From NCBI RefSeq assembly GCF_009931435.1, contig NZ_CP043414.1: DNA of 64,000 bases; one strand, written 5' to 3'. How positions within the stretch are numbered: position 1 is the stretch's first letter; every line of letters starts with the position of its first letter. A model generated the notes under the pieces. That model made no database searches, was not told the origin of the DNA, and worked only from the letters and a program-made list of their open reading frames with translations. This document shows positions 13,885 through 15,900 of the stretch, one piece after another. A program made the translations under genes and the position numbers. Source of the DNA: Escherichia coli (lineage in GTDB: Bacteria; Pseudomonadota; Gammaproteobacteria; Enterobacterales; Enterobacteriaceae).

Positions 13885-14044
13885 GCAACCGCGATCAAAT
13901 CCTCAACATTTTGTTCCTGCCATTCAATCTAAACGCTGCGATCCAACCGCCATACCTGCTATCTTCAACTTCAGGACAATAATGCAACGTCTTATTAACA
14001 TATTTAACGTTGAATGTTACTGTTGTCGTCAAGATGGCATAAGA

Positions 14045-14060
14045 CCTGCATGAACGAGCC
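14045..14060 (+). promoter_or_regulatory. Candidate sigma54 (-24/-12) promoter of argT
   Basis: tggcat-aagac-ctgca fits the TGGCAC-N5-TTGCA spacing, about 58 bp upstream of the argT ATG; argT is nitrogen-regulated in enterics. Confidence 0.45.
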
Positions 14061-14900: not shown

Positions 14901-15117
14901 TACGTCGCAGGGAAGCTGTACCTGATGGAATGATCATGGTGCACGCCAGGTTTGTTGCACTATCGTGGTGCATTAAAATGCATACTTAAGCATTTTTAAT
15001 GAAAAATAATACGTCTAACGGGGCGGGATATTTTGCCTTGATGGTCAATTTTATGGCACGATAAGTGTAACAAACCTGTAAATATTCCCTATAAAAAGAC
15101 TGTCAGTTGAGGACATT

Positions 15118-15900
15118 ATGAAAAAACTGGTGCTATCGCTCTCTCTGGTTCTGGCCTTCTCCAGCGCAACGGCGGCGTTTGCTGCGATTCCGCAAAACAT
15201 CCGCATCGGTACCGATCCGACCTATGCGCCATTTGAATCAAAAAATTCACAAGGTGAACTGGTTGGCTTCGACATCGATCTGGCGAAGGAATTGTGCAAA
15301 CGCATCAATACGCAATGTACGTTTGTCGAAAACCCGCTGGATGCGTTAATCCCGTCCTTAAAAGCGAAGAAGATTGACGCCATCATGTCATCGCTTTCCA
15401 TTACGGAAAAACGTCAGCAGGAAATTGCCTTCACCGACAAACTGTACGCTGCCGACTCTCGTCTGGTAGTGGCGAAAAATTCCGACATTCAGCCGACAGT
15501 CGAGTCGCTGAAAGGCAAGCGCGTAGGCGTATTGCAGGGCACCACCCAGGAGACGTTCGGTAACGAACACTGGGCACCAAAAGGCATTGAAATCGTCTCT
15601 TATCAGGGGCAGGACAACATTTATTCTGACCTGACTGCCGGACGTATTGATGCCGCATTCCAGGATGAGGTCGCCGCCAGCGAAGGTTTCCTCAAACAAC
15701 CCGTCGGTAAAGATTACAAATTCGGTGGCCCGTCTGTTAAAGATGAAAAACTGTTTGGCGTAGGTACCGGCATGGGTCTGCGTAAAGAAGATAACGAATT
15801 GCGCGAGGCACTGAACAAAGCCTTTGCCGAAATGCGCGCTGACGGTACTTACGAGAAATTAGCGAAAAAGTACTTCGATTTTGATGTTTATGGTGGTTAA
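15118..15900 (+). CDS. hisJ: Histidine-binding periplasmic protein
   Basis: 260-aa ORF with signal peptide ([22 protein letters not shown]); followed by hisQMP. Confidence 0.9.

Follow-up and report, generated by a model that had tools for sequence, protein, structure and literature searches.

The inverted repeat found between argT and hisJ in the chromosome of E. coli is very probably the DNA dyad of the already described ArgR operator of hisJ (hisJQMP), and not an RNA element. Since this operator is known, the repeat adds nothing new on hisJ control in E. coli K-12; the preliminary description of the site, made by a reader without tools, had picked out a documented operator and guessed both its class and its regulator rightly. 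The DNA analysed, referred to below as the window, is the whole stretch of 64 kb (64,000 nucleotides) and comes from E. coli. Its segment 14701-15400 is 100% identical to strain 2017-02-2CC, and a comparison with 5,425 complete genomes gave 95-99% identity in nearly all of them.

The repeat (Table 1) lies in the argT-hisJ spacer of 217 bp, in which three differences from K-12 MG1655 are seen: T is replaced by A at 14909, ATC (3 bp) is deleted near 14932, and G is replaced by A at 14975. The left arm (cattaaaatgc) is followed by an 8-nt spacer (atacttaa, 14982-14989) and by the right arm (gcatttttaatg), which carries one extra T and ends 117 bp before the hisJ ATG. The arms, the 8-bp spacer and the single indel are all seen in the sequence as first described, and the distance of about 120 bp from hisJ also stands; the start of the repeat, given then as 14970, was one base early. 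A repeat of this quality appeared in 10 of the 2000 sequences obtained by dinucleotide shuffling of the spacer, that is, more rarely than would be expected by chance. When repeats were counted as at least 11 Watson-Crick pairs with no more than one single-base bulge and a loop of 3-10, eight were present in the whole window, compared to 0-3 in whole-window shuffles.

Table 1. Features of the argT-hisJ region in window coordinates; negative positions are relative to the hisJ sigma70 start site
Feature	Position	Strand	Sequence	Remarks
argT	14118-14900			gene 5' of the intergenic region
NtrC site	14956-14972		TGCACTATCGTGGTGCA	zero mismatches to TGCACY-N5-GGTGCA
Alternative ARG register	14967-15004		ggTGCATtaaaATGCAta + ct + TAAGCATTTTTAATGAAA	boxes 14967-14984 + 14987-15004, offset 10 bp
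Inverted repeat	14971-15001			arms 14971-14981 + 14990-15001; -98 to -68; dyad 14985.5
ARG box, promoter-distal	14977-14994		aaTGCATacttAAGCAtt	centre -83.5; 12.6 bits
ARG box, promoter-proximal	14998-15015		aaTGAAAaataATACGtc	centre -62.5; 7.3 bits (weak); 3 bp after the distal box
Neighbouring stem-loop	15013-15046	+		arms 15013-15027 + 15032-15046, loop 15028-15031; directly 3' of the repeat, overlaps the -35
hisJ sigma70 -35 (inferred from the start site)	15033-15038	+	TTGCCT	18-bp spacer to CACGAT
sigma54-type element	15054-15069	+	TGGCACGATAAGTGTA	-24 intact; -12 'GC' -> 'GT' in Escherichia
hisJ sigma70 -10 (weak)	15057-15062	+	CACGAT	-12 to -7
hisJ transcription start site	15069	+		window position of the start site in the PMC3415461 supplement
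hisJ	15118-15900			ATG at 15118; hisQMP next

We built a symmetric ARG-box matrix of 18 columns from 20 boxes of ten K-12 operators, with hisJ excluded. The tandem training boxes were located with the textbook consensus in the K-12 control regions of carA, argE/argC, argR, argA, argG, argD, argI, argF, artJ, and artP; the recovered sites include the known carA, argF, and argR operators. Under this matrix, the basis of which is small (only 20 sites), left-out known operators score 21-39 bits as pairs. The whole 64 kb was then scanned with both spacings (2 bp and 3 bp). All three best double boxes of the window were found at this locus, with 27.5, 20.0, and 16.2 bits, and pairs elsewhere reached at most 14.8 bits. 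The first-ranked pair (15.9 + 11.6 bits) occupies the alternative register of Table 1 and has a 2-bp spacer, as in the argR operator; the second-ranked is the pair at 14977-15015, with a 3-bp spacer; the third-ranked covers 14967-15005. The two leading scores, set against the range of the left-out operators, give the locus a tandem ARG-box profile, and both of its spacings are those of ARG boxes. Four single boxes start at 14967, 14977, 14987, and 14998, i.e. 10-11 bp apart, and score 15.9, 12.6, 11.6, and 7.3 bits, respectively. The allele of the window favours the register with the 2-bp spacer and not the published one with 3 bp.

The dyad of the repeat coincides with the dyad of the distal ARG box. 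Five pentamers resembling ARG half-sites (TGCAT, ATGCA/TGCAT, AAGCA, ATGAA/TGAAA, and ATACG) are spread over 14969-15013 at intervals of ~9.5-11.5 bp. Because TGCA is self-complementary and the centres of the boxes are A/T runs, the array takes on the appearance of a long inverted repeat with its centre in the distal box. Judged from the sequence, the repeat is the palindrome of one ARG box, lengthened outward by the half-sites of its neighbours. The same pair count applied to known ArgR operators returns inverted repeats of 4-8 pairs.

Position 14975, inside the left arm, is A in this strain and G in K-12. For the surrounding 49-mer, the K-12 form is found identical in 5325 of 5405 E. coli genomes (98.5%), while the form of the window is present in 29 (~0.5%). 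With the G allele the strict count falls to 6 pairs, compared to 11 with A, so the full-length 11-pair repeat is due to the rare A. The same base lifts the ARG-like box at 14967-14984 from 9.0 bits (K-12 allele) to 15.9 bits, and the pair from 19.9 to 27.5 bits. Thus, the full length of the repeat hinges on an allele carried by about one in two hundred E. coli genomes, which goes beyond the textbook picture of this operator.

According to PMC6640053 (citing Caldara et al. 2007), the control region of hisJ contains two 18-bp ARG boxes bound by ArgR, with 3 bp between them and 17 bp between the pair and the downstream -35 element; repression of hisJ by ArgR is weak, direct, and arginine-dependent, and does not involve steric exclusion. 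An ArgR ChIP-exo peak at hisJ has been reported (PMC4381063), as the preliminary description had proposed to check, and the same paper mentions an upstream region that stabilises ArgR binding. For K-12, these two papers report ArgR binding in vitro and in vivo together with arginine-dependent repression. The hisJ start site is listed at 2424859 (NC_000913.2, minus strand) together with the sequence upstream of it, ...GGCACGATAAGTGTA, and a leader of 49 nt (PMC3415461 supplementary file 2); the start-site table of PMC2760140 has no hisJ entry. Since the start site at 15069 places the -35 element exactly 17 nt after the end of the proximal box at 15015, the geometry fits the published description of the footprint. 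TTTGCC at the -35 is kept in nearly all genera of our alignment. Both ARG boxes are near the promoter, upstream of the usual promoter overlap. Three independent pieces of evidence led us to infer that the published ArgR boxes are those at 14977-14994 and 14998-15015. Of the regulators proposed at the outset as candidates (ArgR, Lrp, NtrC, and Nac), it is therefore ArgR that matches, by first rank under an independent matrix and by the published 17-bp spacing to the -35. The initial preference for a protein-binding site over a terminator was well founded: the ARG matrix ranks this spot first, and the repeat gives no RNA signals (see below).

A model of repression can be outlined on this basis. 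Arginine-bound hexameric ArgR binds upstream of the weak sigma70 promoter (-35 at 15033, -10 at 15057, start at 15069) and would contact four half-sites in one or the other of the two registers, which are offset by 10 bp, while its remaining subunits could touch the flanking half-site. The bend induced by ArgR may then disturb upstream contacts of RNA polymerase at this weak promoter. As the literature has it, hisJQMP is repressed weakly, probably via DNA distortion and not via exclusion of RNA polymerase.

The locus and the species are the same as those of the E. coli hisJ operator treated in PMC4381063 and PMC6640053, and once the boxes are placed, as we do here, at 14977-15015, the operator in the window shows essentially no difference from that of K-12 except for the rare A14975. 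Canonical ArgR operators (argF, argI, carAB P2, argECBH, artJ, artP) are also tandem imperfect palindromes (wnTGAATwwwwATTCAnw) with a 3-bp spacer, and score 21-39 bits compared to 20-27 bits for the hisJ double boxes. However, they overlap the -35/-10 elements and act by steric exclusion, whereas the hisJ site is located upstream (-92 to -54) and its repression is weak. The hisJ boxes further differ from the canonical ones in their TGCAT/AAGCA variants, in a C at position 9, which is normally A/T, and in having two overlapping registers.

The astCADBE promoter combines an NtrC enhancer, ArgR sites, and a sigma54 promoter, with ArgR acting as a co-activator. The order of elements is the same at hisJ: NtrC sites, ArgR-type sites, and then a TGGCAC-N5-nTGCA promoter. 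We found the astC sigma54 promoter (TGGCACGAACCCTGCA), and the ARG-like sites of astC reach only 4-6 bits with our repression-trained matrix. In contrast to co-activation at astC, the effect documented for hisJ is that a sigma70 promoter is weakly repressed; the sigma54 -12 element of Escherichia is degenerate. The regulatory region of Salmonella dhuA (hisJ) reportedly contains an NtrC binding site as well. In the orthologous spacer of two Salmonella loci of our set, the NtrC sites, the TGCATACTTAA core, ATGCAAAA, and a canonical sigma54 promoter are kept. Compared to E. coli, the NtrC site and the core of Salmonella are ~24 bp further apart, the best ARG pair is in the other register (13 bits), the -12 element is intact, and the downstream hairpin is much stronger (-25 kcal/mol). 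hisJ and astC have been named together as sigma54 targets that are also under ArgR (bioRxiv 10.1101/276808).

A scan with one genome per species returned 80 loci, and argT is directly upstream of hisJ at every locus with enough upstream sequence. In the alignment of the spacers the NtrC half-sites are conserved, and a block TGCATA[CG]TTAAGC...ATGCAAAA, corresponding to 14979-15006 of the window, is near-invariant. Its core, TGCATA[CG]TTAAGC (14979-14991), is near-invariant in ~55 species, and T3, G4, A6, T7, A12, and C15 of the distal box, the most informative ARG positions, show no variation over 53 species, and the flanks diverge. Within the window the core is present as a single copy, with 3-mismatch matches at chance level. 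Non-consensus bases of the distal box are also kept across genera (C/G at position 9, A13, G14), and the consensus position 16 varies; C or G at position 9 was never seen among the 20 known boxes. Of the proximal box, the left half alone is conserved outside Escherichia. Genera keeping the block have their best double box mostly in the 14977-15015 register, at a distance of 75-77 nt from the downstream TGGCAC, and the double scores are 15-26 bits in Escherichia versus mostly 4-15 bits elsewhere (lower in a few taxa), below the range of known operators. Of the conservation anticipated for a functional repeat, only part is seen: the operator is almost invariant within E. coli (49-mer identical in 98.5% of genomes) and the core of the distal box is kept in 53 species, but the proximal box is kept by half and the outer stem is not kept between genera. 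ArgR would account well for the E. coli site and only partly for the family-wide conservation, and the conserved non-consensus bases of the core suggest a constraint beyond ArgR.

Three loci without the block (Dryocola, Cedecea, and Enterobacter sp. R1) contain another ARG-like pair, TTTGAATATATTCTTAAC cgg GCTGGATAAAAATGCAGT, of 18-19 bits, ~157-173 nt upstream of TGGCA. This different pair hints at turnover of the ArgR site and not at its loss. No promoter was recognised inside the conserved core on either strand, since no acceptable -35/-10 spacing was seen by eye and a sigma70 scan returned none.

At the position aligned with the sigma54-type element, which in the window shares bases with the sigma70 -10 and with the start site, other genera mostly have the canonical TGGCACGATAACTGCA, and Escherichia does not. 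From the comparison of ~60 species, the sigma54 promoter would be an ancestral feature that has become degenerate in Escherichia, i.e. an NtrC/sigma54 promoter of hisJ seems to have decayed in this lineage. One may speculate that the core and the ATGCAAAA segment form an architectural site for ArgR (or for ArgR with another factor) placed, across Enterobacteriaceae, downstream of the NtrC enhancer and upstream of a canonical sigma54 promoter, as at astC, and that Escherichia was rewired in a lineage-specific way from co-activation at sigma54 to weak repression of the overlapping sigma70 promoter; we regard this as rather unlikely. The steps in Escherichia would have been decay of the -12 element (TGC to TGT), loss of ~24 bp beside the NtrC site, and strengthening of the ARG boxes. 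If true, NtrC-driven expression of hisJQMP could depend on arginine via the architectural ArgR site. Elsewhere in the window, a sigma54 promoter of argT (TGGCATAAGACCTGCA) is seen at 14034-14049, ~70 bp before the argT ATG, in line with an NtrC-dependent argT promoter. A sigma70-type argT start site is located further upstream, with a 146-nt leader (PMC3415461).

The conserved non-consensus bases, together with the weakness of the partner box outside Escherichia, could also mean that the core is a site of another protein (Lrp, IHF, ArgP, or some other factor) or that it bends the DNA that separates the NtrC enhancer from the sigma54 promoter, the ARG resemblance being secondary. The core is found ~60-100 bp upstream of TGGCAC, the usual place of architectural proteins at other sigma54 promoters. 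Still, no fit was seen between the core and the consensus of IHF, CRP, PurR, or NtrC in a comparison by eye, and a pattern search of 14901-15117 found no match to the Nac core ATA-N9-TAT, so Nac can be dropped from the initial list of candidates. The core also occurs just once in the window. As to Lrp, hisJ is listed among its direct activated sigma54 targets by ChIP-seq (bioRxiv 10.1101/276808), which conflicts with a published single-copy hisJ promoter-lacZ fusion, where the loss of Lrp was without effect; the latter result speaks against Lrp as the regulator behind the repeat. With binding of ArgR at the hisJ promoter documented experimentally (PMC4381063 and PMC6640053), a primary role of another protein appears unlikely, and ArgR remains our preferred occupant of the site.

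NtrC, the remaining candidate, does have a site here, next to the repeat. The NtrC site of Table 1 is the sole zero-mismatch match to the NtrC dyad in the window; it shares 6 bp with the ARG-like box 14967-14984 and 2 bp with the left arm of the repeat. It falls under the published NtrC ChIP-seq peak for hisJQMP (2424941-2425021, U00096.2), which spans approximately 14910-14987 of the window, and in many genera GGTGCA half-sites are located directly upstream of the conserved block. All this would be compatible with the repeat being part of the NtrC enhancer, e.g. a low-affinity or 'governor' site serving nitrogen and not arginine control. However, the repeat misfits TGCACY-N5-GGTGCA, its TGCA and AGCA being 3 bp too close, no match with two or fewer mismatches covers 14975-15001, the right arm is outside the ChIP-seq peak, and the fit to ARG boxes is far better. 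We consider an NtrC identity of the repeat very unlikely: the NtrC site adjoins it and overlaps its left arm, and the repeat itself is not an NtrC site.

The ArgR operator preferred here nevertheless shares bases with the NtrC site, which could let the arginine and nitrogen signals compete, or else cooperate. The leftmost ARG half-site is common to both, and arginine and nitrogen control would meet on the same DNA; an interplay of ArgR and NtrC at these overlapping sites could follow from their arrangement. Escherichia does not have the ~24 bp that are found in other genera (loci L006-L081 of the scan) between the NtrC GGTGCA and the TGCATA core, at the 14973/14974 junction. As a consequence of this absence, the NtrC site abuts and overlaps the ARG boxes. 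A direct repeat, ATCATGGTGCA / ATCGTGGTGCA, at 14933-14943 and 14962-14972 (29 bp apart) represents two right half-sites for NtrC, of which the upstream one is paired with a poor left half and, in K-12, flanked by the extra ATC.

The alternative first considered for the repeat was a terminator or attenuator, i.e. an RNA hairpin that would fold in argT read-through and terminate, attenuate, direct processing, or stabilise a 3'-end. The region is upstream of the hisJ start site and so is transcribed only by argT read-through, and argT-hisJQMP is described as a single operon in some papers. The repeat folds somewhat better than shuffles (z ~ -2 to -4) in Escherichia and several Citrobacter species, and a T:A / G:C / A:T change between E. 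coli, Citrobacter, and Salmonella seemed compensatory by eye. However, the stem is AT-rich (3 of 11 pairs are G-C), with -8.2 kcal/mol and z of -1.8, and 14 of 200 shuffles fold as well or better. As was noted from the beginning, there is no adjacent T-run; none is present on either strand, the stem being followed by GAAAAATAAT, so the repeat is not a G+C-rich stem with a U-tract, and a terminator scan makes no call. RNAalifold predicts 0 pairs on 53 species. When the E. coli structure is imposed on the same 53 species, paired cells amount to 62.6% versus 62.4% in shuffles, and the covariation score is 0.166 versus 0.175 in shuffles, with 356 of 500 shuffles reaching it. The mean folding z across 60 distinct sequences is -0.8, values below -2 being found mainly in Escherichia and Citrobacter, and z is near 0 in Enterobacter, Klebsiella, and Kosakonia though the core sequence is kept there. 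Rfam returns only matches with E of at least 3, far below gathering scores, and so assigns no family. The same tests are positive for a neighbouring hairpin, which indicates that they have power on this data set. Fold, U-tract, covariation, and Rfam tests thus lend no support to a terminator or attenuator, and folding of the repeat as a functional RNA hairpin seems highly improbable. The apparent compensatory change failed the formal covariation count; the upstream GCAT is often part of an NtrC half-site, and the downstream ATGC is part of the conserved ATGCAAAA block.

That the repeat is a palindrome that arose by chance in an AT-rich spacer and has no role by itself is hardly credible, although the 11-pair form needs one rare base, the common G allele leaves 6 pairs, and the outer stem diverges between genera: few shuffles match its quality (see above), its inner part is under strong purifying selection, and it coincides with a documented operator, so that chance may hold in part for the outer 4 bp of the stem and is refuted for the core by conservation and the ArgR data.

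A conserved RNA structure signature is carried not by the ArgR repeat but by the hairpin next to it (15013-15046). Over 49 species of Enterobacteriaceae, its paired cells amount to 74.7% versus 68.8% in shuffles, and cells changed on both sides number 58 versus 36.7; neither value was reached in any of 500 shuffles. Its covariation score of 0.273 exceeds all 500 shuffles (0.202), and controls slid along the alignment gave no more than 0.131. Folding z averages -3.1. Many G-U pairs give the + strand RNA a higher stability than that of the - strand in 57 of 61 species (Wilcoxon p ~1e-10), and this bias means that the hairpin would form in transcripts coming from argT. The files of PMC7815308 contain no entry with RNA 3'-end data for it. 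If transcription of argT and hisJ is separated by any element, it is this hairpin, and not the repeat, that may be considered the candidate argT 3' hairpin, leaky terminator, or attenuator. Its energy ranges from -21 to -31 kcal/mol in Salmonella, Citrobacter, and Pseudescherichia, and the E. coli version, with -12, is degenerate. Only in Escherichia does a U-rich tail (CAAUUUUAU) come after the hairpin.
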